A stretch of 32,000 nucleotides of DNA, taken from NCBI RefSeq assembly GCF_000016745.1, contig NC_009483.1, positions 3,540,001-3,572,000 on the forward strand, in the 5' to 3' direction. The notes beneath the pieces were generated by a model. The model searched no databases and had not been told where the DNA came from. It saw nothing but the letters and a program-made list of their open reading frames with translations. Source of the DNA: Geotalea uraniireducens Rf4 (GTDB lineage Bacteria > Desulfobacterota > Desulfuromonadia > Geobacterales > Geobacteraceae). The translations under genes and the position numbers were made by a program. This document shows positions 6,201 to 25,681 of this stretch, piece after piece. Each line of letters starts with the position of its first letter. Position 1 is the first letter of the stretch.

Positions 6201-6650
6201 ATGGGAAGAATTGTGTTGGTGGCGATGGTGTTATTGCCTCGCATGGTCTTCGCCGCTACCGACTGCCGGGTTGTCGAATATCCGGACCATTACGAGGCTG
6301 TGTGTGTAGGAAGTGAAAAATACGGACCTGTGCAGGCGAAAACGGCCGTGCAGGAAAAGGCACCTCCGCAGGCACAGACACCCGTGCAGGCCCAGGAAGC
6401 AGCGCAGGCACAGACAGCTGCGAAAGCCCCATCACCTGCCGTGCAAGCGCTCATTGCTTATAGAGAGCGCTTGCCGAATAAATCACTCAGGGATGCCGCA
6501 AAAGCATCGAGAATGAGGCTGATACAGGAGGAACGGCAGAAGCAGCTTGATAAACCGGCCAAGGTTGATCCCCCCATGCCCGACATGATGCCGGATTCAA
6601 ACCCTGCGATCGGATCATTCGGCACGATGGACAGTGAAAGCGGCAATTGA
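6201..6650 (+). CDS. small secreted hypothetical protein with a Pro/Gln/Ala-rich low-complexity centre
   Basis: 149-aa ORF. GGGAGG lies upstream of the ATG. Signal peptide: MGRIVLVAMVLLPRMVFA-AT. I recognise no family. Confidence 0.6.
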   Translation: MGRIVLVAMVLLPRMVFAATDCRVVEYPDHYEAVCVGSEKYGPVQAKTAVQEKAPPQAQTPVQAQEAAQAQTAAKAPSPAVQALIAYRERLPNKSLRDAAKASRMRLIQEERQKQLDKPAKVDPPMPDMMPDSNPAIGSFGTMDSESGN

Positions 6651-6761
6651 ACGCGGATAAATGCAGATTTAAGTCAAAACCGAAAATCACCGGGCGGAAC
6701 AATGGTCAACGATGAAACAACAGGAACATGGGTGCAATCAAGCACAAAAGGAGGGAATATC

Positions 6762-9700
6762 ATGTCCAGGTGCAGATTTTTGACATGGATGAGTCTGGCA
6801 TCGGCGGCAGTCGCCCTTGTCAGCGTATTTGACCCGGGCCGCGCCCTTGCCGCCCCCGTGACGGGGCCCGGCAGTGTCCCGGACTACTTCGAGACCCCAA
6901 ACTGGGCCAACAGCCCCCCCCTGAGGAAATTCGTCGACTCGCTGGCGCCTCTGGGGTGCACCACGCCGAACACCCTCGGCCAGTGTATTCCGGTTGCCGT
7001 CCCGGATACGACAACCTATCCGGGGTCCGATTACTACGAAATCGAGGTTGTCCAGTATCGCGAGCAGATGCATTCGGATCTTCCTGCGGTCGTCGGCAAC
7101 AAGATGGACCCTGCAGCCACAGGCGGGACCCTGCTGAGGGGGTACAGGCAGTTCAATACTGCCGATCCCAACCTGTTGACCCCCCACTACCTGGGCCCCC
7201 TGATCGTTACCAAGAAATACGATCCGCGATATGCGCCGGACGCACCCTTGCCGGGTGGCGGCACGAATGGGAGACCGGTGCGCATCAAGTTCATCAACAG
7301 CCTGCCCACCGGGGACGGCGGCTACCTATTCATCCCGACAGACACCACCGTCATGGGTTCGGGGATGTTTGAGATCAATTATGACCCGGTGACCAAGGCT
7401 CCCGGCCCCACGATCACCGGTGATTTCGCGCAGAATCGGGCCACCCTCCACCTCCATGGCGGCCACTCTCCGTGGATCAGCGACGGAACCCCCCACCAGT
7501 GGATCACCCCGGCTGGAGAGGTCACGCCCTACGCCAAGGGGGTCAGCGTGGCCTACGTGCCCGATATGTGGTTCGACGCGGCCGGGAACACGATTGCTGC
7601 CTGCGCGGGCCAGACGACCTGCGGGGTTGGGGGAGCGACGAACAATCCCGGTGCAGGCGCGCAGACTTTCTACTACACCAATGAGCAGAGCGCCAGGCTG
7701 CTCTTCTACCACGACCATTCCTGGGGAATCACCCGCCTCAACGTCTATGTCGGCGAGGCTGCGGGCTACCTGATTGAAGACCCCGTAGAGATTGCCCTGC
7801 GCGACGGCGGGACCATCAACAGCCGAACCTTCACCGCCGGGACGATTCCCACCGCCCAGATTCCTCTCGTCATCCAGGACAAGACCTTCGTGGACGGCAA
7901 CCCGGCCAGCCCGACTTACGTCCGCGCCACTGATCCCACCTGGAACTGGGGATCGGGCACGCCGGTCGGAGGCATTCGCCCGCCGGTCACCGGCGACTTC
8001 TGGTGGCCCCATGTCTACATGCCGGCCCAGAACCCGTTCAATCCCGACCTGAGCGGGATGAACGCCATGGGGCGGTGGCACTATGCCCCCTGGTTCTTCC
8101 CGCCGCCCCCGATATGCGGGTCCGACCCCGAAGCGGTGAAACCGTACTGCATCGAGTTTGGTACGGTCGCAAACCCCTATTACGACTGCGGCCCTGGCGG
8201 CCCTTGCACCAATCCGGGCCAACCGCCGGAGATCCCCGGCACCCCCAACGTATCATGGGGGGCGGAAGCGTTCCTGGACACCATGATGGTCAACGGAACA
8301 GTCTACCCGACTCTTCCGGTACAGGCGCAACCTTACCGCCTCCGGATCCTGAACGCCTCACACGACAGGTTCCTCAACCTGCAACTTTATAAAGCCACCC
8401 CTATCGTCAGCGGCATCACCGTTGTCACCGGGGGGACCGGTTATACTTCTGCTCCTACGGTCGCCCTCATCGGCGGCGGCGGGACGGGCGCCACTGCAGC
8501 AGCGACGATCGATCCGGCAACCGGCGCCGTTACTGCGATCGACCTTCTTACCGTGGGGAGCGGGTATACATCTCCTCCGGCTGTCTCCATCACGGGTGGC
8601 GGCGGAACGGGCGTCGCTGCAACAGCAGCAGTTTACACTGCCTTGACGGAAGTAGGCATGGTGCCTGCGGCATCGACCTCGGGCTTCCCTGCAAGGTGGC
8701 CGGCGGACGGCAGGGAAGGTGGCGTGCCCGATCCGGCGACGAGGGGCCCCGCGTTCATTCAGATCGGCACCGAAAGTGGCTTCCTGCCGGCGCCGGTGCT
8801 ACTGAACAACCAGCCTGTTGCCTGGAACCTCGACCCGACCATGTTCAACGTCGGGAACGTTCTCCAGCAGGCCGACGGAGGCGGCACGCTCTTCGTCGGT
8901 CCGGCTGAACGGGCGGACGTCATCGTCGACCTCACTAACTACGCCGGTCAGACCCTGATCCTCTACAACGACGCTCCCACCGCTTTCCCGGCGCTCGTCC
9001 CACAATATAACTACTACACGGGCGCCCCGGACCGGCGCGACATCGGCGGTGCAGCCCCAATCCCGCCGGGTTTTGGCCCCAACGTCCGGACCGTAATGCA
9101 GATCACGGTGGCGGGAACCGGCGGCGCCGCGCCCCCCGATGACTACAACCCGGCGACCCTGAACGCGCTGCAAACTGCCTTTGCCGGCGGTGCGACACCC
9201 GGCGTTTTCCAGTCGTCCCAGGAGCAGATCCCCGTGGGGCAGAGTGCCTACGATTCCACTTACAACACCACTTTCCCCGCCACCTGGCCGAACTGGGGCG
9301 TATCGAGAATCTCGGATAGCGCAATAAGCTTCCAGAAGGTTGATGGCACAATTGTGAGCAATTTCAAGATGAAGGCCAAGGCCCTCCATGACGAGATGGG
9401 CGAGACCTTCGACGACTACGGGCGGATGAGCGCCAAGCTGGGGCTCGAAGTGCCGTTCGTCAACGCCGCGAACCAGAACTTCATCCTCCAGAACTACGTC
9501 GATCCGGCCACCGAGGTCGTGAACAACAACGGAGTCCAGATCTGGCGGATCACCCACAACGGCGTGGACACACACCCCATACATTTCCACCTGTTCGACG
9601 TGCAGTTGCTCAACAGGGTTGGCTGGGACGGGTTCATCAGGCTCCCCGACCCCAATGAGCTGGGGTGGAAGGACACCGTCAGGATAAGCCCGCTGGAGGA

Positions 9701-10688
9701 CACGATCGTCGCGCTCCGGCCGACCACTCCCATAGTGCCGTTCTCGCTCCCCAACAGCATCCGTCCTCTGAACCCATCTACACCCTTCGGCTCCACGATG
9801 GGATTCTCGCAGCTCGACACGACGACAGGCGGAGACATTGTGCCGCCCCAAACGAACCAGTTGGCCAACTTCGGACTGGAATACGTGTGGCACTGTCACA
9901 TCCTGAGCCACGAAGAGAACGACATGATGCGGTCGACAATACTGAATCCCAACACCAGGGACGACATCCTCTGGAGGAACACCTCTAACGGCCTGAACGC
10001 GTTCTGGTACCTGGACGGGGTAACGCGCACGGCGTCTGCATATATTCCCTCAATGACCGATCAGAACTGGAAGATCGTGGGCAGGGGTGATTTCAACACT
10101 GACGGCAAACCCGACATCCTCTGGAGGAATACCTCCAACGGCCAGATCGCGGTCTGGTACATGGACGGGGTAACGCGCACCGGATCCGCATTCCTTCCCA
10201 CATTAACCGATCAAAACTGGAAGATTGTCGGTGTGGGTGACTCCAACAATGACGGAAAACCCGATATCTTCTGGAGAAATACCTCTAACGGCCAGAACTC
10301 GGTCTGGTACATGAACGGGGTAACGCGCACGGGGTCCGCTTATTTCCCCGTATTAGCCGACCAGAACTGGAAGATAGTGGGCGTACGCGACTTCAACGAT
10401 GACGGCAAACCCGACATCATCTGGAGAAATACCTCTAACGGCCAAAATGCGGTCTGGTATATGAACGGAGTAACGCGCACCGGGTCTGCTTATTTCCCCA
10501 CACTAACCGACCAGAGCTGGCAGATTGTGGGTACCGGGGACTTCAACAGCGATGTCTATCCGGACATCCTGTGGAGGAATACCACTACCGGAGCGAACAT
10601 GACATGGTATCTGAAAGGGATAACACAGATAGGGACGGGAACGATCGCCACACTTGCAGATCAAAACTGGAAGATTGTGGGACAATAG
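6762..10688 (+). CDS. large multicopper oxidase (OmpB/OmpC-like) with C-terminal FG-GAP/VCBS repeat domain
   Basis: All four MCO copper motifs are present: [23 protein letters not shown] and [14 protein letters not shown] prefer the start at 6762 (M21 of the ORF-track ORF 6702..10688) because AAAGGAGGG lies 6 nt upstream and a signal-like [20 protein letters not shown]...ALAAP follows. The C-terminus carries five repeats of the type [50 protein letters not shown]. Confidence 0.9.
9961..10685 (+). repeat. about 4.8 tandem copies of a 150-bp coding repeat (FG-GAP/VCBS blades)
   Basis: cgacatcctctggaggaa recurs at 9962 and 10112, with close variants (atatcttctggagaaa at 10263, acatcatctggagaaa at 10413, acatcctgtggaggaa at 10563) continuing the 150-bp period. 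Long identical runs recur, for example ggggtaacgcgcac and gaccagaactggaagat. Confidence 0.9.
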
Positions 10689-19656: not shown

Positions 19657-20387
19657 TTTACTGCCTCACAAGACCAGCCAAATGGATCGTCCTTTTTGTT
19701 GTCGAACCTGTCCAGCCACAAGAATATTGTTTGCAACAAGCGTACAATCATTTGCGCAACGAATTTGACAGGGTAAATCACGATTCCAACGACGTTGGGA
19801 TTGTTGCTGCGAAGCCCCGCAGGAGGGAAAATCGACAGTCCCCTCGGTAGCTCGTATGCCCAGCGGACCCAACGTCCTCCAAATGGAGTTATCTTGATCT
19901 CCCGAAAACCAGCATGCTTGCATATGGATTCAAGCCCATAGGACGTATATCTGAAAAAGTCATGGGGACCCTGATGTTCGGGATGTGCCATCGGCACCGT
20001 CATGAAAAGCTTTCCGTCGGGTTTGAGGACACGGTACATCTCCTTGACGCTTTCACGGGGCCATTCCAGATGCTCAAGCACCTGGGTGCACAGCACTGCA
20101 TCGAAGGTGCCATCTTCGATGGGCATGTCATGCAAGGGAGCGACGTAATCGAGGTTGGCATAGTTCCAGCGGCGTTCACCCACGGCTAAGTCGATTGCTT
20201 TATAGTTGCAATTGGAAAAAAACCTTTTGTAAACACACTCTCCCGCACCGGCATCCAACAGGGAGGCATTCTCCGGCAGGCTCTCCGCAACATACTTCAC
20301 GAAACGGGTTATATACCATCTGCCGACATCCTGTATTTTATTTCTCGCTGAAAAGTCCTCATTTATCATCACAAAGTACTTCCCCAT
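19653..20387 (-). CDS. class I SAM-dependent methyltransferase (Methyltransf_11-like)
   Basis: 244-aa ORF. Motifs: LLDAGAGECVY, FDAVLCTQVLEHL, LKPDGKLFMTVP. Its stop overlaps the next gene's start (ATGA at 19653-19656). An alternative start is at 20369. Confidence 0.82.
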   Translation of the reverse strand: MGKYFVMINEDFSARNKIQDVGRWYITRFVKYVAESLPENASLLDAGAGECVYKRFFSNCNYKAIDLAVGERRWNYANLDYVAPLHDMPIEDGTFDAVLCTQVLEHLEWPRESVKEMYRVLKPDGKLFMTVPMAHPEHQGPHDFFRYTSYGLESICKHAGFREIKITPFGGRWVRWAYELPRGLSIFPPAGLRSNNPNVVGIVIYPVKFVAQMIVRLLQTIFLWLDRFDNKKDDPFGWSCEAVK

Positions 20388-21648
20388 ACAAAAAATTGAA
20401 GTGGTTGGTTTTCAGAAAATGGTGTTGGAGAAAAAGGTTTACGACAAAGAACAGGCTGGTGGCAAACGCGAGGCCAAATACGCCAAAGTAATAATACAGA
20501 GCAATTTTTGCCGGAACATAGAATGTATAGCTGCATATCCCCAGGCGTGTTGGTGTTGACGTGTCGCCGAGCGCGAAATACGATGATGACGATATCTGTC
20601 CCATTACACCACCGGCAAACATGCCGGAGAGCCAGACCATGATCCACCATAATTCCCGAACATTGCCGGCGCTCACATTACCGTGTCCCACCAGCAGGCT
20701 CAGTACTGTCTGCCCCAAAAGCCCCAGCACCAGAAGTCCGACGAGGCTGATTGCGCCGACCTGCACCAGTTTCCGGTGATAGGCACGCCGAAAGCCCGCC
20801 TTGTCCCCCGCCTTGTGGAGCCGACTCAGCGCCGGTACCAATGGGGCAGCGAAAGCCTTGTTGAGCACCTGGCTGACCGCACCATAAATCTGCTGAGCCA
20901 GGTAATATAATGACAGGCTGCCACTGCCGGCGGTGGAGAGCAGAATGCGGTCCACCAGCGGGTCGGTCTTGTAATAGGCTGTCCCCAGCAGCAGGGGTTT
21001 GATGCGCTGCCAGGCTTGCCGGACAGAAGGGCATCTCAGGTCGGGGCGAACCGGACGCCCCATGCCGGGGGCAAGCAACAGGGTTTGCAGGCCCATGCGC
21101 AGGGTGCTGATCCAGGCAGCCGCGATAACCCCGAAACGGGGGAGCGCCCAGATCAACAGGAGCAAGGCAAAAGCACTGACCAGGATCGGGGTGAATTCTG
21201 CCCACAAAAACTGTTGCCTGGCGTGGTAGGCGGCCCATTGCACGCCATTGATCGCCGTAAAGACCATGCCGACGAGTTGGATGCGGGTAAGCGTTACCGT
21301 GAGACTTTGGCCGGTCTCGTTGAAGCCTGGCACAGTAAGGGGCACCCACCAGGGTGCCGCCATATAAAGAAGAACTGCCAACAGTGCGAATATACCGCCA
21401 ATAAGGACGAAAAATCCCCAAGTGTCATGGCGGAGACGATCTTCGCTTTCTCCCGAAAGAAGCGGCACGAGGACATGCATGAGCGATCCGCTGATGACCG
21501 CCAATACGAGCTGGGGGATCGTCATGCCGGCAAAAAGCGCGTCGGTCTCTACTCCCGGCCCCAGTTTGACAAGAACATACCACTGAAAAACAAAGGCGAG
21601 GCCGATGTTGGCAGCGGAAAGGAAGCCGAGTTGAATCGAGAGTTTCAT
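20359..21648 (-). CDS. MOP-superfamily polysaccharide/lipid-linked oligosaccharide flippase (Wzx/MurJ-like)
   Basis: 429-aa polytopic membrane protein with about 12 TM segments. The N-terminus (GPGVETDALFAGMTIPQLVLAVISGSL) resembles the MurJ/MviN family. It sits between the PCP and methyltransferase/GT genes. Confidence 0.65.
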   Translation of the reverse strand: MKLSIQLGFLSAANIGLAFVFQWYVLVKLGPGVETDALFAGMTIPQLVLAVISGSLMHVLVPLLSGESEDRLRHDTWGFFVLIGGIFALLAVLLYMAAPWWVPLTVPGFNETGQSLTVTLTRIQLVGMVFTAINGVQWAAYHARQQFLWAEFTPILVSAFALLLLIWALPRFGVIAAAWISTLRMGLQTLLLAPGMGRPVRPDLRCPSVRQAWQRIKPLLLGTAYYKTDPLVDRILLSTAGSGSLSLYYLAQQIYGAVSQVLNKAFAAPLVPALSRLHKAGDKAGFRRAYHRKLVQVGAISLVGLLVLGLLGQTVLSLLVGHGNVSAGNVRELWWIMVWLSGMFAGGVMGQISSSSYFALGDTSTPTRLGICSYTFYVPAKIALYYYFGVFGLAFATSLFFVVNLFLQHHFLKTNHFNFLYGEVLCDDK

Positions 21649-22895
21649 TGGCTGCCCTGACTGTTTATGCCCGTCCGCAACTTCTGAAAATTATCAAGTG
21701 CCAGAACCAACGCGCAGGAGCCGGCCAAGGCCGCTAAAAAGACGATCGTTACGATTTTTCTCCTTACCGGCTTGCTCCGCCTCTCCGGCACCTTTGCATT
21801 CTGCAGCACATGAAACGGCGAAACGTCCTTGACCTCGGACAGCTTCGCCACCTCGTACTGTTTGGCCAGCAGCTCCACCAGCGTCTCCTGGATCCTGAAC
21901 TCCCGCATCAGCCGCAAATACTCCTGTCCCAGCTGCGGCATACTTCCGACTGATGGAATGGAACTGCTCCCCTCGCCATTTCCCTCCAGCTTGACGATCT
22001 GTGCCTGCAAATTTGCCGCTGTGGATTTGGCCGTTTTTACCTCCTGGCTTGATTCGGTAAACTGCCTCCGGAAGGTGGCCAACTGCACCTCCTGAGCAGC
22101 AAGTTGGGCCCGCAACTGCGCCACTCCCTCGATGGTGGCCTTGGCCTGGTCGGTTACCGATACGGCCTTATTTTTTGCCTGAAAGGCTTTGAGAGCATCC
22201 TCCGCCTTTGCCAGATCGACACGGGCCGCAGCGAGGCGTTCTTCCAGATACCCGCGGTCCTTGCCGGCCGATGTCATGTTGAGCCTGGCGGCAAGTTTCC
22301 CCAGCTCGTCCACGTAAGCATTGGCCAGATCCGCTGCCCGCTTGGGATTCTTGTCGTCCACGGCAATGGTGATGACCCCGTCCTTTTTGCCTGCCGTGAC
22401 GATGACATTCTTATCCAGCGCCGTGTACACATCGGACCGAAACTTTGCCTCGTACAGATCCTTCAGCTTGAAGCGGTCGATAATCGGGTCCTTGACCGTC
22501 TCACTCTTCAGCATGGTCACATACAAGCCGGCCTTGGTCGCCCCCCCCAGACCACCACCGGCAATACCGGCAACACCGCCCAGACCGCCAAGTTGGGCCA
22601 TCATGGCCCCCATGACCCCTTTGTCGTCCTCTCTGGGCAGAATCATGGCCTTTGCAGTGTAGATGCCGGGGATCAGCAGAACGACAATGATACTGATAAT
22701 GGTGGCGACCAGGGTGATGCCGGCGATCAGCCGCCAGCGTTTGACGAACAGGGCCAGGTAGTCGAAAAGAGTGGGAGCAGGTTCGAGGTTCGAGGTTCGA
22801 GGTTCGAGGTTAGAACCAGCTTCAAGGTTCGAGGTTCGAGGTTCGAGGTTCGAGGCGCGAGGTTCGAGCTTGTTAGTATCGGAATGCTGCATCAT
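21645..22895 (-). CDS. polysaccharide co-polymerase / chain-length determinant (Wzz/GumC-like, no kinase domain) with a repeat-encoded N-terminal extension
   Basis: 416-aa ORF with the Wzz pattern: FDYLALFVKRWRLIAG plus TM1, a long coiled-coil periplasmic region, and a C-terminal TM (IVTIVFLAALAGSCALVLAL). GGAG lies 5 nt upstream of ATGATG. Residues 9-40 (LEPRASNLEPRTSNLE...SNLEPRTSNLEP) are encoded by heptanucleotide repeats. Confidence 0.85.
   Translation of the reverse strand: MMQHSDTNKLEPRASNLEPRTSNLEAGSNLEPRTSNLEPAPTLFDYLALFVKRWRLIAGITLVATIISIIVVLLIPGIYTAKAMILPREDDKGVMGAMMAQLGGLGGVAGIAGGGLGGATKAGLYVTMLKSETVKDPIIDRFKLKDLYEAKFRSDVYTALDKNVIVTAGKKDGVITIAVDDKNPKRAADLANAYVDELGKLAARLNMTSAGKDRGYLEERLAAARVDLAKAEDALKAFQAKNKAVSVTDQAKATIEGVAQLRAQLAAQEVQLATFRRQFTESSQEVKTAKSTAANLQAQIVKLEGNGEGSSSIPSVGSMPQLGQEYLRLMREFRIQETLVELLAKQYEVAKLSEVKDVSPFHVLQNAKVPERRSKPVRRKIVTIVFLAALAGSCALVLALDNFQKLRTGINSQGSQ
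22779..22866. repeat. two tracts of the heptanucleotide AGGTTCG (coding-strand CGAACCT) inside the wzz-like 5' coding region
   Basis: Tract A has perfect units at 22779, 22786, 22793 and 22800 and a degenerate unit at 22807. Tract B has perfect units at 22825, 22832, 22839 and 22846, a degenerate unit (aggcgcg) at 22853 and a perfect unit at 22860. Isolated AGGTTCGAG copies lie at 22917 and 22934, upstream of the start codon. Confidence 0.95.
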
Positions 22896-22951
22896 TTATA
22901 CTCCGTCAGAAAAATCAGGTTCGAGGAAAAAACAGGTTCGAGTTTTCTCAT

Positions 22952-23133
22952 TCCTTTATCCTCGCACCTCGCTCCTCGATCCTGCCGTTTTACCTCGCTC
23001 CTTTATCCTCGCACCTCGTTCCTCAATCCTGCCGTTTTACCTCGTTCCTTTATCCTCGCACCTCGTTCCTCAATCCTGCCGTTTTACCGCGTTCCTTTAT
23101 CCTCGCACCTCGTTCCTCAATCCTGCCTTTACA
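22952..23133. repeat. about 3.8 tandem copies of a 47-bp repeat filling the wza-like/wzz-like intergenic region
   Basis: tcctttatcctcgcacctcg(c/t)tcctc(g/a)atcctgccgttttacc(t/g)cg(c/t) starts at 22952, 22999, 23046 and 23093. The last copy is truncated at the TAA stop of the upstream gene (23129-23131). A period of 47 is not a multiple of 3, so the array is non-coding. Confidence 0.95.
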
Positions 23134-25681
23134 ACCCCGCCGCAACTATCACCCCTGCAGAAAGCGCGAGATTGCCGAGGATGACGGCTATGTCCTTGAT
23201 TTCACGCATCCAGGCGATTCTTTCAAATTTCTGGGGGACTATGATTGTATCGCCCGGCTCCATGGGAGTGGACATGAACCCGCAAAAGAACAGGTTCTTG
23301 AACATTGAAACCTGTTGCCGGCTGATGACCGTTCCGTCCGCACGGACAACATAGGTATCGCTTTCTTCCGCTTCCCTGGTCGAGCCGCCCGCTTTCCCCA
23401 GATAAAACTCCACATCTTCACCATCAATCGGGATAAAGCTGGTCGGGTTATAGACCTGGCCGAGGACATTCACTGCGTTCGGCACCTGGGGTACTTCCAG
23501 CAGATCCCCCCCCTTGAGTTCCACGTCATAGGGGGAGTCCCTGAACTTGTCGAGTTTATCCATGTTGATCACCAGCCGGCCCTCCGCCTTCGCCGCTTTC
23601 AGCAAAGCCACGATTCTTTGCAGGCTTTCCAAGGCTGCCCTGGTAGCCTCCAACTCCTCCTTCGAGGCGGCAACCGAGGCCACTTCCGCTTGCTTTTTCA
23701 GGATTTCCTGTTCGGTTTTTGCCACAAGCTCATCCATCCGTTTCTGCTGCAGCTCGCGGATGGACACGCGGGTAAACTTGGCGGCCCGCAGGTATGCCTT
23801 GTCGGTAAAGCCGCCGGCCCGCTCGATCAAGGTGCTCAGCTTTTCCCCTTTATAGATCGGGTAGACGCCGGGAAACCGGAATTCTCCCTGGAGGGTGACA
23901 TATCTCTCCTTTTCTTCGGCCCAGTTCGGAATTTTCCTGATGCTCAACTCGTCAAAGGGGGCAAGCATCAGGTTATCCTTCGGATTGCCTTTGATGGCCT
24001 CTTCCAGGTTGATTACGATGGGAAACGACGATACCGCCTCGCCGGTTTGCTTGATGCGGTTTATCTCGGCATTTTTCAGATAAGCGTTGATTTTGGGGTT
24101 GCCCGCGACCAAAAGGAGATCACGGACCGTCATATTGGTGAAGAGCCGGTATTCGCCGGGCCGTTGCACCTCCCCGTTTATCCTGATCCTGGGCATTTCC
24201 TCCATCTCCCAACGGGAGAATATCTGCACCTTGTCGGACTCCTTCAGTTCCAGGTCATGCTCGGGATCACCCGCAAGCGCCTTGGCAACATTGACGAAGA
24301 TTTTCTCCGGATGATAATCGGGCGGATAAAGCCGGGTGATTTCTGCGGCATCTTTATAATATTCGGGGAGGAGATTGTCCTGTAGCAACAGCTGGCTCAG
24401 GCGCATGCCGGGCTGGAGGGCGTAGTCCCCGGGGCGGAGCACATAACCGTCAAGTCTGACATGGTCCCGCAAGGTTATATCGATGGGGAAGATCTTGACG
24501 ACATCCAGGTCCTGGATTTTTATGTTCGCCAAGATCTGATCCAGGGATTTACCCCCACCCTTGGGATCGATGTTGAAATCGGCCACCACCTTCTTTTCAT
24601 GGGCGTCAACCCTGGAAATCTGCACCCTCTGGAGATAACCGGTAGGGAGAAAACCTTCCGCCAGCGCTATCAGATCACCCAGATCCTTCTCTTCTCTGAG
24701 CTCATAGATGGCGGGTCTTTTTACGTTTCCGGCGATTCCGGCAACTCTGCCGATAACCGGCACAAAGATGGTATCGCCGGGCTGGAGACGAATGTCCTTA
24801 CCCTTGTCCCCTTTGAGAAAGAAATCGTAGAGATCGACCGTTTCCACGACCTTCCCCCCCCGTTTAACCTGTATATTCCGCAGGGTGCCGGTTTTCAGCG
24901 GTCCTCCTGAGGCACTGAGAGCGTTGATCAGCGTCGAAAGCGGGCTCAGGTTATAATCGCCGGGTGCTTTCACCTCGCCGACCACATACACCTTGATGAC
25001 CCGCAGTTTCCCCATGGTCACATTCAGGTCGAAATCTTTGAAGATCTTCGACAGATTGGCTTTTAAAAGACCCGGCAGCCGATCGAAGGTAATCCCCCAG
25101 ACCTTCACGTTCCCCACCCTCGGGAGCACAATTTCTCCGCTCCGGTTGACCTCCAGTTCATGCGTCCCTTCGACGCCTCCCCAGAGATTGAGGATGATCC
25201 TGTCCCCCGGGCCGATGACGTAATCGGGACCGACCGGGATGTCGGAGAGCGGGGCGAAACCGGCCGCGGACGGTCTGAAAAAATTGTAACCGAACTGAGT
25301 GAGATTTTTTACCTGGTATGGCTGAGGATGGGCAGTTTCTACTGCCGCATCTTCGGCGAAAGCAGCCCTTTCAATGGCGGAAAGCTCCGCCTGATCCGCC
25401 TGTTCGCTTTCCACTCCGGCATATTTAGTCTTTTCCACGCCCCCCTCCGGCCTTGTGCCTCCGGTGCTTTTCAGGGGTGAAGTTTCTGTCGGACTCAGGG
25501 ACGGAGCTGGCGATGCGGTTACCGGTAAAGAAGGGGGGGCTGCGACTGGACTAGATGCTGACGGTAACGCTGATTTTGCAGGAAGGGATTGCGAAAGTCC
25601 CTCGGCAGAAACCCGATGGCAATGAAATAACATCAAAATACCCCACATCAGGGCAACAAAAACCAAATTTCCTCTTCTCAA
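23129..25681 (-). CDS. outer-membrane polysaccharide export protein (Wza/OPX family; Poly_export plus multiple SLBB domains)
   Basis: 850-aa ORF. Signal peptide: ...LMLFHCHRVSA-EG. A Ser/Pro-rich linker follows. Poly_export motif: YVIGPGDRIILNLWG. SLBB-like units (PGDY.L..G.RLS.LL) recur. The C-terminal segment is hydrophobic. The start is TTG at 25681, with GGGAGAGG 5 nt upstream. Confidence 0.88.
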   Translation of the reverse strand: MRRGNLVFVALMWGILMLFHCHRVSAEGLSQSLPAKSALPSASSPVAAPPSLPVTASPAPSLSPTETSPLKSTGGTRPEGGVEKTKYAGVESEQADQAELSAIERAAFAEDAAVETAHPQPYQVKNLTQFGYNFFRPSAAGFAPLSDIPVGPDYVIGPGDRIILNLWGGVEGTHELEVNRSGEIVLPRVGNVKVWGITFDRLPGLLKANLSKIFKDFDLNVTMGKLRVIKVYVVGEVKAPGDYNLSPLSTLINALSASGGPLKTGTLRNIQVKRGGKVVETVDLYDFFLKGDKGKDIRLQPGDTIFVPVIGRVAGIAGNVKRPAIYELREEKDLGDLIALAEGFLPTGYLQRVQISRVDAHEKKVVADFNIDPKGGGKSLDQILANIKIQDLDVVKIFPIDITLRDHVRLDGYVLRPGDYALQPGMRLSQLLLQDNLLPEYYKDAAEITRLYPPDYHPEKIFVNVAKALAGDPEHDLELKESDKVQIFSRWEMEEMPRIRINGEVQRPGEYRLFTNMTVRDLLLVAGNPKINAYLKNAEINRIKQTGEAVSSFPIVINLEEAIKGNPKDNLMLAPFDELSIRKIPNWAEEKERYVTLQGEFRFPGVYPIYKGEKLSTLIERAGGFTDKAYLRAAKFTRVSIRELQQKRMDELVAKTEQEILKKQAEVASVAASKEELEATRAALESLQRIVALLKAAKAEGRLVINMDKLDKFRDSPYDVELKGGDLLEVPQVPNAVNVLGQVYNPTSFIPIDGEDVEFYLGKAGGSTREAEESDTYVVRADGTVISRQQVSMFKNLFFCGFMSTPMEPGDTIIVPQKFERIAWMREIKDIAVILGNLALSAGVIVAAGL

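Follow-up and report, generated by a model that had tools for sequence, protein, structure and literature searches.

The window analysed here is the whole stretch of 32,000 nucleotides (nt) from Geotalea uraniireducens Rf4 (contig NC_009483.1, positions 3,540,001 to 3,572,000). On its minus strand it contains a wzz-like polysaccharide co-polymerase gene (wzz, 21645-22895), an open reading frame (ORF) of 416 amino acids (aa) with the start MMQHSDTNKLEPRASNLEPRTSNLEAGSNLEPRTSNLEPAP, whose product is 100 % identical to the Rf4 protein ABQ27232.1. Upstream of wzz and on the same strand lies wza (23129-25681, stop codon at 23129-23131), which encodes a Wza-type outer-membrane polysaccharide export protein with Poly_export and SLBB domains. 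The subject of this analysis is a set of heptanucleotide repeats that occupies the junction of these two genes and runs into the beginning of wzz. An earlier note, made from the sequence of the window, had drawn attention to two tracts of CGAACCT directly past the wzz start codon and had taken them for a potential slipped-strand phase-variation switch.

Tandem Repeats Finder reports the tracts as one repeat at 22779-22868 with a period of 7, 13.3 copies and 79 % matches, the consensus AGGTTCG corresponding to CGAACCT on the coding strand. With up to 2 mismatches allowed for it, CGAACCTCGAACCT has 10 matches in the window, all within 22779-22866 (0.16 in shuffled sequences). The 9-mer CTCGAACCT has 11 matches, all within 22779-22942 (0.22 expected). 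The coding tracts (22781-22868, minus strand) comprise about 13 units of the CTCGAAC type, translated as SNLEPRT repeats, and the whole coding repeat region translates as LEPRASNLEPRTSNLEAGSNLEPRTSNLEP. The first array (22827-22868, minus strand, roughly codons 10-23) consists of CTCGAAC, CTCGCGC and four further CTCGAAC units and is translated as LEPRASNLEPRTSN. A degenerate link of 18 nt, CTTGAAGCTGGTTCTAAC (22809-22826, minus strand), separates its perfect units from those of the second array (22781-22808, minus strand), which has four CTCGAAC units followed by CTGCTCCC. In the CGAACCT register, the same sequence reads as four perfect units, 11 nt, one degenerate unit and four perfect units. 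The layout described in the earlier note, namely two tracts 11 nt apart, each with four perfect units plus degenerate ones and encoding SNLEPRT, agrees with this arrangement and with the translation. We infer that the 18-nt link consists of decayed units and is not a spacer, because the array in the closely related allele L199 is uninterrupted and the N-terminal tail encoded by that allele is 3 nt longer overall.

The ribosome-binding region of wzz (22890-22904, minus strand) is made up of GGAG at 22901-22904, a gap of 5 nt and ATGATG at 22890-22895, as had been noted. This start context (cGGAGt, 5-9 nt, ATG CAR CA) is kept in Geobacteraceae orthologs, in frame with the Wzz domain, and a wzz start codon upstream of the repeats is supported by this comparison. 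The remark that no further ATG precedes the first membrane helix also holds and can be extended to other start codons: there is no in-frame ATG, GTG or TTG until codon 84, which lies beyond that helix, and translation must therefore begin 5′ of the repeats. In simulations, the gain or loss of one or two units led to stop codons at residues 19-133 and the loss of three units kept the frame, which is the arithmetic on which the proposed switch was based. Two plus-strand ORFs, 22104-23354 and 22771-23184, also run through the repeat region. They are read as artefacts, because heptamer arrays of this kind are free of stop codons in all frames (the CTCGAAC unit gives none in any frame in either orientation).

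Two further parts of the repeat region had been overlooked, namely units in the 5′ untranslated region (5′UTR) and the period-7 nature, on the opposite strand, of a 47-nt repeat upstream. The 5′UTR of wzz holds two 17-nt modules (22909-22942, minus strand), each composed of CTCGAACCTG followed by a T-rich run, with copies of CTCGAACCT at 22917-22925 and 22934-22942; the unit type is shared with the coding region. The rest of the wza-wzz spacer is filled by the 47-nt tandem repeat (22947-23127, minus strand, 3.9 copies, 95 % matches). In the mRNA sense, this repeat follows the stop codon of wza at a distance of 6 nt, and each of its blocks consists of GUAAAACGGCAG and the purine-rich heptamers GAUUGAG, GAACGAG, GUGCGAG, GAUAAAG and GAACGAG. 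On the plus strand, a block reads CTCGTTC, CTTTATC, CTCGCAC, CTCGTTC, CTCAATC, CTG and CCGTTTTAC, that is, five period-7 units of the type CTCNNNC plus a 12-nt tail (CTG and a T-rich run), and this is the same module as that found on the minus strand. A search of the 32 kb for three consecutive CTCNNNC units found only two arrays, 22779-22868 on the minus strand and 22947-23124 on the plus strand. The two arms are thus inverted, and they are imperfectly complementary (70-83 %). The four-copy state of the 47-nt repeat is a lineage-specific amplification, with one block in L195 and L002 and about 1.3 in L199.

The order of the blocks, namely purine-rich block, UTR units, GGAG-ATG and coding units, is kept in orthologs with 96 % to 52 % identity (L199, L195, L196, L002, L001, L008, L004, L012 and L047). 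The homogenised unit is specific to each lineage (CTCGAAC, CTCGATC, ATCGAAC or CCCCGAA). In L012, both arms carry an identical AT variant (GTTCGATGTTCGAAG versus CTCGAACATCGAAC), with a clean hairpin around the start codon, and L047 has 11 GAGGNNN units upstream. In 62 wzz loci (251 kb) there are 23 period-7 arrays, of which 18 lie between -400 and +50 relative to where the Wzz domain starts. The density of such arrays at the 5′ end of wzz is 29-fold that in the rest of these loci (18 versus 5 arrays), a ratio that overstates the specificity for the junction because most of the remaining DNA is coding.

Close alleles were taken from the cluster at 90 % identity to which the Rf4 protein belongs and from its nearest neighbours, with body identities of 92-98 %, and five allele types were found. 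The sequence encoding the N-terminal tail is 132 nt long in the Rf4 allele of the window (about 13 units, including the 18-nt decayed stretch), 135 nt in L199 (13 contiguous units, 6 of them perfect), 105 nt in L002 and L003 (array partly decayed), 72 nt in L195 and L196 (4 units) and 66 nt in L197 and L198 (no coding array). The difference between L199 and L195 is 63 nt, which is exactly 9 units. On the evidence of this difference and of coding unit numbers of 0, 4 and 13, the length of the arrays at the wzz locus is subject to slippage-type change. A comparison of unit numbers in related genomes had been suggested as a check on the proposed switch, and it finds a length that is not invariant.

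The alleles L197 and L198 are informative about the tail itself. Their Wzz body is 98 % identical and their tail is an unrelated, repeat-free stretch of 22 aa (MQQRTDQRSNTPQPATPTVS), from which the repeat-bearing N-terminal tail is shown, by sequence comparison, to be dispensable. In both loci (positions 1074-1500), wza and wzz are separated by an inserted gene that encodes a 23S-rRNA-intervening-sequence protein, and a fresh (CTCGAAC)3(TTTGAAC)2 array lies directly 5′ of the Shine-Dalgarno sequence. The tail, which we take to be cytoplasmic from what is known of the family, is encoded by 45 to 201 nt across relatives and is poorly conserved in sequence; N-L-(D/E)-P-R-like peptides recur in many orthologs.

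All close alleles of the Rf4 cluster are in frame. So are 17 of 18 array-bearing orthologous alleles, a count that is partly biased, as the sample is small, consists of consensus assemblies and, where alleles came from protein searches, was pre-selected for an intact N-terminus. In the exception, L060 (1474-1555), the conserved start ATGCAACA is out of frame with the Wzz domain. Comparison by hand with L011 and L016 puts the shift close to the start codon, within a CACAC context and 5′ of the array, and L060 was consequently rejected as an off allele caused by the repeats. The shift may be an assembly or sequencing indel, the contig name being suggestive of a long-read metagenome assembly, or it may mark a real pseudogene. 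Among the 18 array-bearing alleles, none with a frameshift caused by the repeat was found.

Arrays of the same heptamer are not restricted to wzz. When metagenome contigs were scanned for exact matches to three CTCGAWC units, arrays were found in at least 120 contigs (L075-L194), the G+C content among the matches listed ranging from 0.32 to 0.68, and no wzz homolog was present in the at least 120 array contigs listed. The commonest array length is 4 units (45 of the 120 matches listed), and the range is 3-43. Within this set, 34 loci have an inverted partner on the 5′ side of the CTCGAWC array and 1 has it on the 3′ side. This polarity is identical when viewed from either strand, and the window has it too, with (GWTCGAG)n 5′ of (CTCGAWC)n. 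Gene calls on the array contigs were made with a rough heuristic, the GC content at third codon positions. In at least 19 of 62 intergenic cases, the purine-rich orientation begins 0-12 nt after a stop codon (examples are L088, L093, L109, L112, L143, L146, L178, L187 and L193, and the window at 23123-23131), and sometimes the stop codon overlaps the first unit of the purine-rich array (cctgagGATCGAG). Spacers between convergent genes hold 12 arrays. The element at wzz is a member of a widespread class of period-7 simple-sequence arrays of the form (GWTCGAG)n ... (CTCGAWC)n, and the fixed polarity of the arms together with their adjacency to stop codons suggests a function tied to gene expression. 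The idea that inverted pairs mark divergent promoters, so that transcripts would carry the pyrimidine-rich array only, was rejected, as it is the purine-rich orientation that follows stop codons.

Some of the arrays lie within genes. In-frame arrays were found inside 8 Pfam-verified genes (L080, L091, L097, L116, L118, L120, L144 and L170), the array-bearing products being ThiF, an amidohydrolase, DNA polymerase I (polA), MnmG (two sites), a LysA-type decarboxylase, a protein with the array in a kinase-receiver linker, an ASPIC/FG-GAP protein and a Ser/Thr kinase. These intragenic arrays have 3-4 or more units and encode the peptides LEPRTSN or VRGSRFE, and in some cases both arms are within the ORF. 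The purine-rich block motif of the window also recurs at unrelated junctions, for which gene identities were assigned by reading translations. In L075, the block motif and an array of 12-13 CTCGAAC units lie between genes for a PilQ-like secretin and an AroK-like kinase (pilQ-aroK), and the junction in L099 is similar; there, the two arms are separated by a spacer that contains a canonical terminator-like hairpin with A and T tracts. In L101, the purine-rich block is similar in kind and does not match in sequence, and the 12 units that follow it stop a few bases short of the ATG in a prmC-like gene.

Heptanucleotide tandem repeats near the 5′ end of the coding sequence, as in wzz, are known from a surface-glycan gene of Escherichia coli K1, neuO (PMC3046976), and pglE of Neisseria meningitidis has a further coding-region switch made of heptanucleotides (PMC7157529). 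In neuO, AAGACTC repeats are found 2 nt after the start codon in 2-93 copies and the gene is active only at multiples of three; three units correspond to one RLKTQDS heptad, and the extension is not required for activity (PMC3046976). The wzz gene is alike in that three units make up one peptide heptad (SNLEPRT), the core protein can do without its N-terminal extension and the frame is kept in a single residue class of copy number modulo 3. However, neuO has 2-93 perfect copies, natural on and off alleles and measured high-frequency switching, whereas wzz has 4 + 4 perfect units (L199 has 6 perfect units of 13) and is in frame in 17 of 18 alleles. In wzz, unlike neuO, units are also present in the UTR, and the upstream spacer is taken up by inverted copies. 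The repeats of the hmw promoter, for comparison, are present in 13-38 copies (PMC2651432). The novelty that had been claimed for the switch is thereby narrowed: the design is known from neuO and pglE, and only its presence in wzz and in Geobacter would be new. No report of a phase-variable wzz was found in the literature that was accessible.

A search of the literature for the exact arrays gave only an unrelated paper. In the accessible parts of the papers on other heptanucleotide arrays, heptanucleotide repeats are described as outnumbering every other type of long simple-sequence repeat in the majority of bacterial genomes (Mrazek 2007, as quoted in PMC4679880 and PMC4692102). As reported there, GGGAATC arrays of Xanthomonas mostly have four units, sometimes form inverted pairs, and are kept in the same gene spacers with variable length (PMC4679880, PMC4692102). 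Geobacter metallireducens has 49 four-heptamer elements in and between genes, together with paired five-heptamer sites on opposite strands (PMC2700814). As far as these sources extend, the wzz element resembles this class (the repeats of Mrazek 2007, the GGGAATC arrays, the Gmet_H4 elements and class-3 paired sites, and the TAACTGA arrays of Beggiatoaceae) in its period of 7 and typically 4 units, in occurring between and inside genes, sometimes as inverted pairs and often near start codons (PMC4692102, PMC2700814, PMC4679880), and in being found at the same gene junction in related species with varying length and sequence. It differs in its unit (CTCGAWC / GWTCGAG), in spanning a start codon and in having one arm translated. 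The accessible parts of the heptanucleotide-repeat literature contain no mention that we could find of a fixed arm polarity or of adjacency to stop codons.

REP/BIME elements are intercistronic palindromes or hairpins found at mRNA 3′ ends, with a fixed palindrome of about 35 nt. What the wzz element has in common with them is an inverted repeat within an operon that follows directly on the upstream cistron's stop codon, a stable predicted hairpin and an element type that is dispersed across loci. Unlike them, it is built from period-7 tandem units, has no U tract and has a distal arm that overlaps the next coding region.

The explanation that we favour, and to which we assign an even chance of being correct, is that a composite element of heptanucleotide repeats occupies the wza-wzz junction, with the CGAACCT tracts as its distal, pyrimidine-rich arm, and that it probably acts, if at all, on the mRNA. 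Read along the mRNA, the element begins six bases after the wza stop codon with four 47-nt blocks of purine-rich heptamers (GANNGAG) and continues with two CUCGAACCUG units and U-rich runs in the 5′UTR, the Shine-Dalgarno sequence and AUG, and about 13 CUCGAAC-type units in codons 10-39. It crosses the wzz start codon in this way, and the part of the arm that extends into the ORF is translated as SNLEPRT. Such an arm could be tolerated within the ORF because CTCGAAC is stop-free in all frames and the N-terminal tail is dispensable. The arrays grow and shrink by replication slippage, and selection would remove length changes other than multiples of 3 nt. Pairing of the two arms is predicted to give a long, imperfect duplex from which the ribosome-binding site of wzz is looped out, and the resulting intercistronic hairpin would set the relative expression or stability of the wza and wzz messages, and would not be an on/off frameshift switch.

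Action on the mRNA as an intercistronic hairpin is the most likely form that a function would take, and this step is inferred and only moderately supported. The fold of 22760-23135 (376 nt) has a predicted energy of -141 kcal/mol, compared with -107 kcal/mol for shuffled sequences (z = -6.8). In this predicted structure, the leader blocks pair with the coding units, the ribosome-binding site of wzz is looped out, and all of the pairing of the window's coding array goes to the leader. A stable hairpin is thus predicted directly past a stop codon, its purine-rich arm beginning 6 nt after that of wza, and the duplex may form in vivo, with a possible regulatory effect. When duplexes of leader and N-terminal coding sequence were compared, the cognate combination ranked first for the window, L012 and L018, and results for other orthologs were mixed; the comparison with cross-species duplexes is confounded by upstream coding sequence and is not used as evidence of covariation. 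The leader of the window is rich in GGA, yet an arm of L012 (GTTCAATGTTCGATGTTCGAAG) has no GGA and is complementary to its own coding units. A role as a CsrA-type GGA leader or CsrA sponge was dropped, as GGA is not conserved.

A number of results weigh against an action on the mRNA. For most orthologs, the z-scores of the fold reach only -1 to -3, and the antisense strand folds as well as the sense strand does, with no asymmetry in favour of the mRNA strand. For the coding arrays of L195 and L047, the predicted pairing partners lie mostly outside the leader (leader fractions of 0.08 and 0.03, respectively). The copy numbers of the arms do not co-vary, since L199 has 13 coding units and about one purine-rich block, and a co-expansion of the two arms was rejected on this ground. 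The predicted accessibility of the ribosome-binding site is unremarkable. A scan of 22000-24000 against Rfam 15 (E ≤ 1) matched no family, and no intrinsic terminator with a U tract is predicted in 22600-23400. Moreover, the accessible parts of the literature give no established function for the published bacterial heptanucleotide arrays.

Inconsistent RNA-structure signal across orthologs is what would be expected if the junction were a functionless slippage hot spot, at which arrays arise and turn over by mutation alone and are tolerated in the UTR and in a disordered tail. This is a serious rival, which we consider somewhat unlikely. Neighbouring units that are identical within a lineage and different between lineages are the mark of ongoing slippage, the arrays are found in many unrelated contexts, the tail is dispensable, and published work, in the parts accessible, ascribes the excess of heptamers to polymerase slippage (PMC4679880, PMC4692102). 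However, four features would be hard to obtain by mutation alone. These are the 29-fold (if overstated) density of arrays at the same junction in orthologs down to about 52 % identity, the fixed polarity of the arms (34 versus 1), the placement of arrays against stop codons and the conservation, between species and loci, of a purine-rich block whose sequence is heterogeneous. The slipped-strand contingency switch of the earlier note, of the neuO poly-psi type, supposes instead that one or two heptamers more or fewer would frameshift wzz and turn the polymer off or alter it, with populations containing both states. Unit number differs between close relatives (4 versus 13), the unit length is 7, the tracts are inside a true ORF in which changes of one or two units truncate the protein, the array persists across the family at the 5′ end of a surface-polysaccharide gene, and the design works in neuO and pglE (PMC3046976, PMC7157529). 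The switching itself did not find support, as no allele is turned off by the repeat: the sole shifted allele among the 18 array-bearing ones (the partly biased count given above) is shifted outside the array, and L199 and L195, which differ only in unit number, are 9 units apart, a multiple of 3. The window also has only 4 + 4 perfect units, set beside 2-93 copies in neuO and 13-38 in the hmw promoter (PMC3046976, PMC2651432), units in the UTR and inverted blocks in the spacer cannot act via the reading frame, and arrays of the heptamer, most often of 4 units, are tolerated in housekeeping genes (polA, mnmG, the lysA-type gene and that for ThiF), where on/off switching would be harmful. A frameshift switch like that of neuO, which might operate at a low rate, is possible on the arithmetic but unsupported, and we consider it improbable; the lack of off alleles caused by the repeat, and the occurrence of units outside the ORF and in housekeeping genes, lead us to favour an explanation with no dedicated frameshift switch.

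The equal folding of both strands also fits a feature that operates at the level of DNA, and the arrays could be binding sites for a global regulator or nucleoid protein, as proposed for the paired tandem-repeat sites of G. metallireducens, where, in the part of the paper accessible, opposite-strand pairs of 5 tandem heptamers are ascribed to IHF/HU-type proteins (Aklujkar 2009; PMC2700814). The arrays at wzz are likewise paired and inverted around a gene start. Against this, a period of 7 bp puts consecutive sites on different faces of the helix, the unit sequences vary between lineages, no candidate binding protein was identified, and a scan of 22600-23400 for sigma-70 promoters found none, so that no promoter-like site is predicted nearby. 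We regard this explanation as very improbable. The remaining explanation places the function in the peptide, with the SNLEPRT heptads forming an N-terminal cytoplasmic extension that tunes the co-polymerase in the manner of RLKTQDS in NeuO (PMC3046976). The repeats are translated, they stay in frame in every relative, and the recurrence of N-L-(D/E)-P-R-like peptides in many orthologs is in keeping with it. However, a 98 % identical relative has an unrelated tail, the length (45 to 201 nt) and sequence of the tail are poorly kept, units also lie outside the ORF and as the reverse complement, and identical peptides are inserted in unrelated enzymes. A function of the peptide is hardly credible in view of these findings, and we rank it lowest.

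A wider form of the favoured mRNA explanation is that the arrays constitute a post-transcriptional module across bacterial phyla, with the purine-rich arm at a stop codon, the pyrimidine-rich arm at or over the next ribosome-binding site, and a pairing length, set by slippage, that tunes the adjacent genes. We put this forward as speculation that is doubtful as it stands. Were it true, the module would have been kept at wzz over the whole history of the Geobacteraceae and would have invaded the ORF, and in-frame changes in copy number would provide a heritable expression dial, not an on/off switch. According to published reports, the long simple-sequence repeats of bacteria are most often heptanucleotide repeats, and the wzz locus offers a tractable case in which the role of these can be addressed: G. 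uraniireducens Rf4 is cultivable, the gene affects a surface-polysaccharide phenotype that can be scored, and there are natural alleles that differ in their coding units (0, 4 and 13) and in their upstream blocks (1 to 4). If the element regulates wza and wzz, it would provide the first mechanism for the whole repeat class. If it is neutral, a frameshift-prone repeat in a surface gene would be insufficient ground for calling a contingency locus in environmental bacteria.

The Pfam Wzz domain begins at residue 43 of the wzz product (41.5 bits, cut-off 25.5), and a match to GNVR is slightly under its cut-off (25.8 bits versus 27.7). Because every NCBIfam equivalog scored far under its cut-off against this protein, it is named here, on domain content, as a generic polysaccharide co-polymerase without a kinase domain. 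The next gene after wzz encodes a MurJ-like flippase (20359-21648) and overlaps wzz by 4 nt. Beyond it are genes for methyltransferases, glycosyltransferases and an EpsG-type polymerase, and the cluster is of the Wzx/Wzy type. Elsewhere in the window, tandem repeats of 150 and 300 nt at 9962-10681 correspond to FG-GAP repeats in the C-terminus of a 1328-aa ORF (6702-10688, plus strand), which also has a match to a multicopper-oxidase domain, and Tandem Repeats Finder reports further short repeats at 751-807 (22 nt, 2.6 copies) and 6346-6416 (36 nt, 2 copies).

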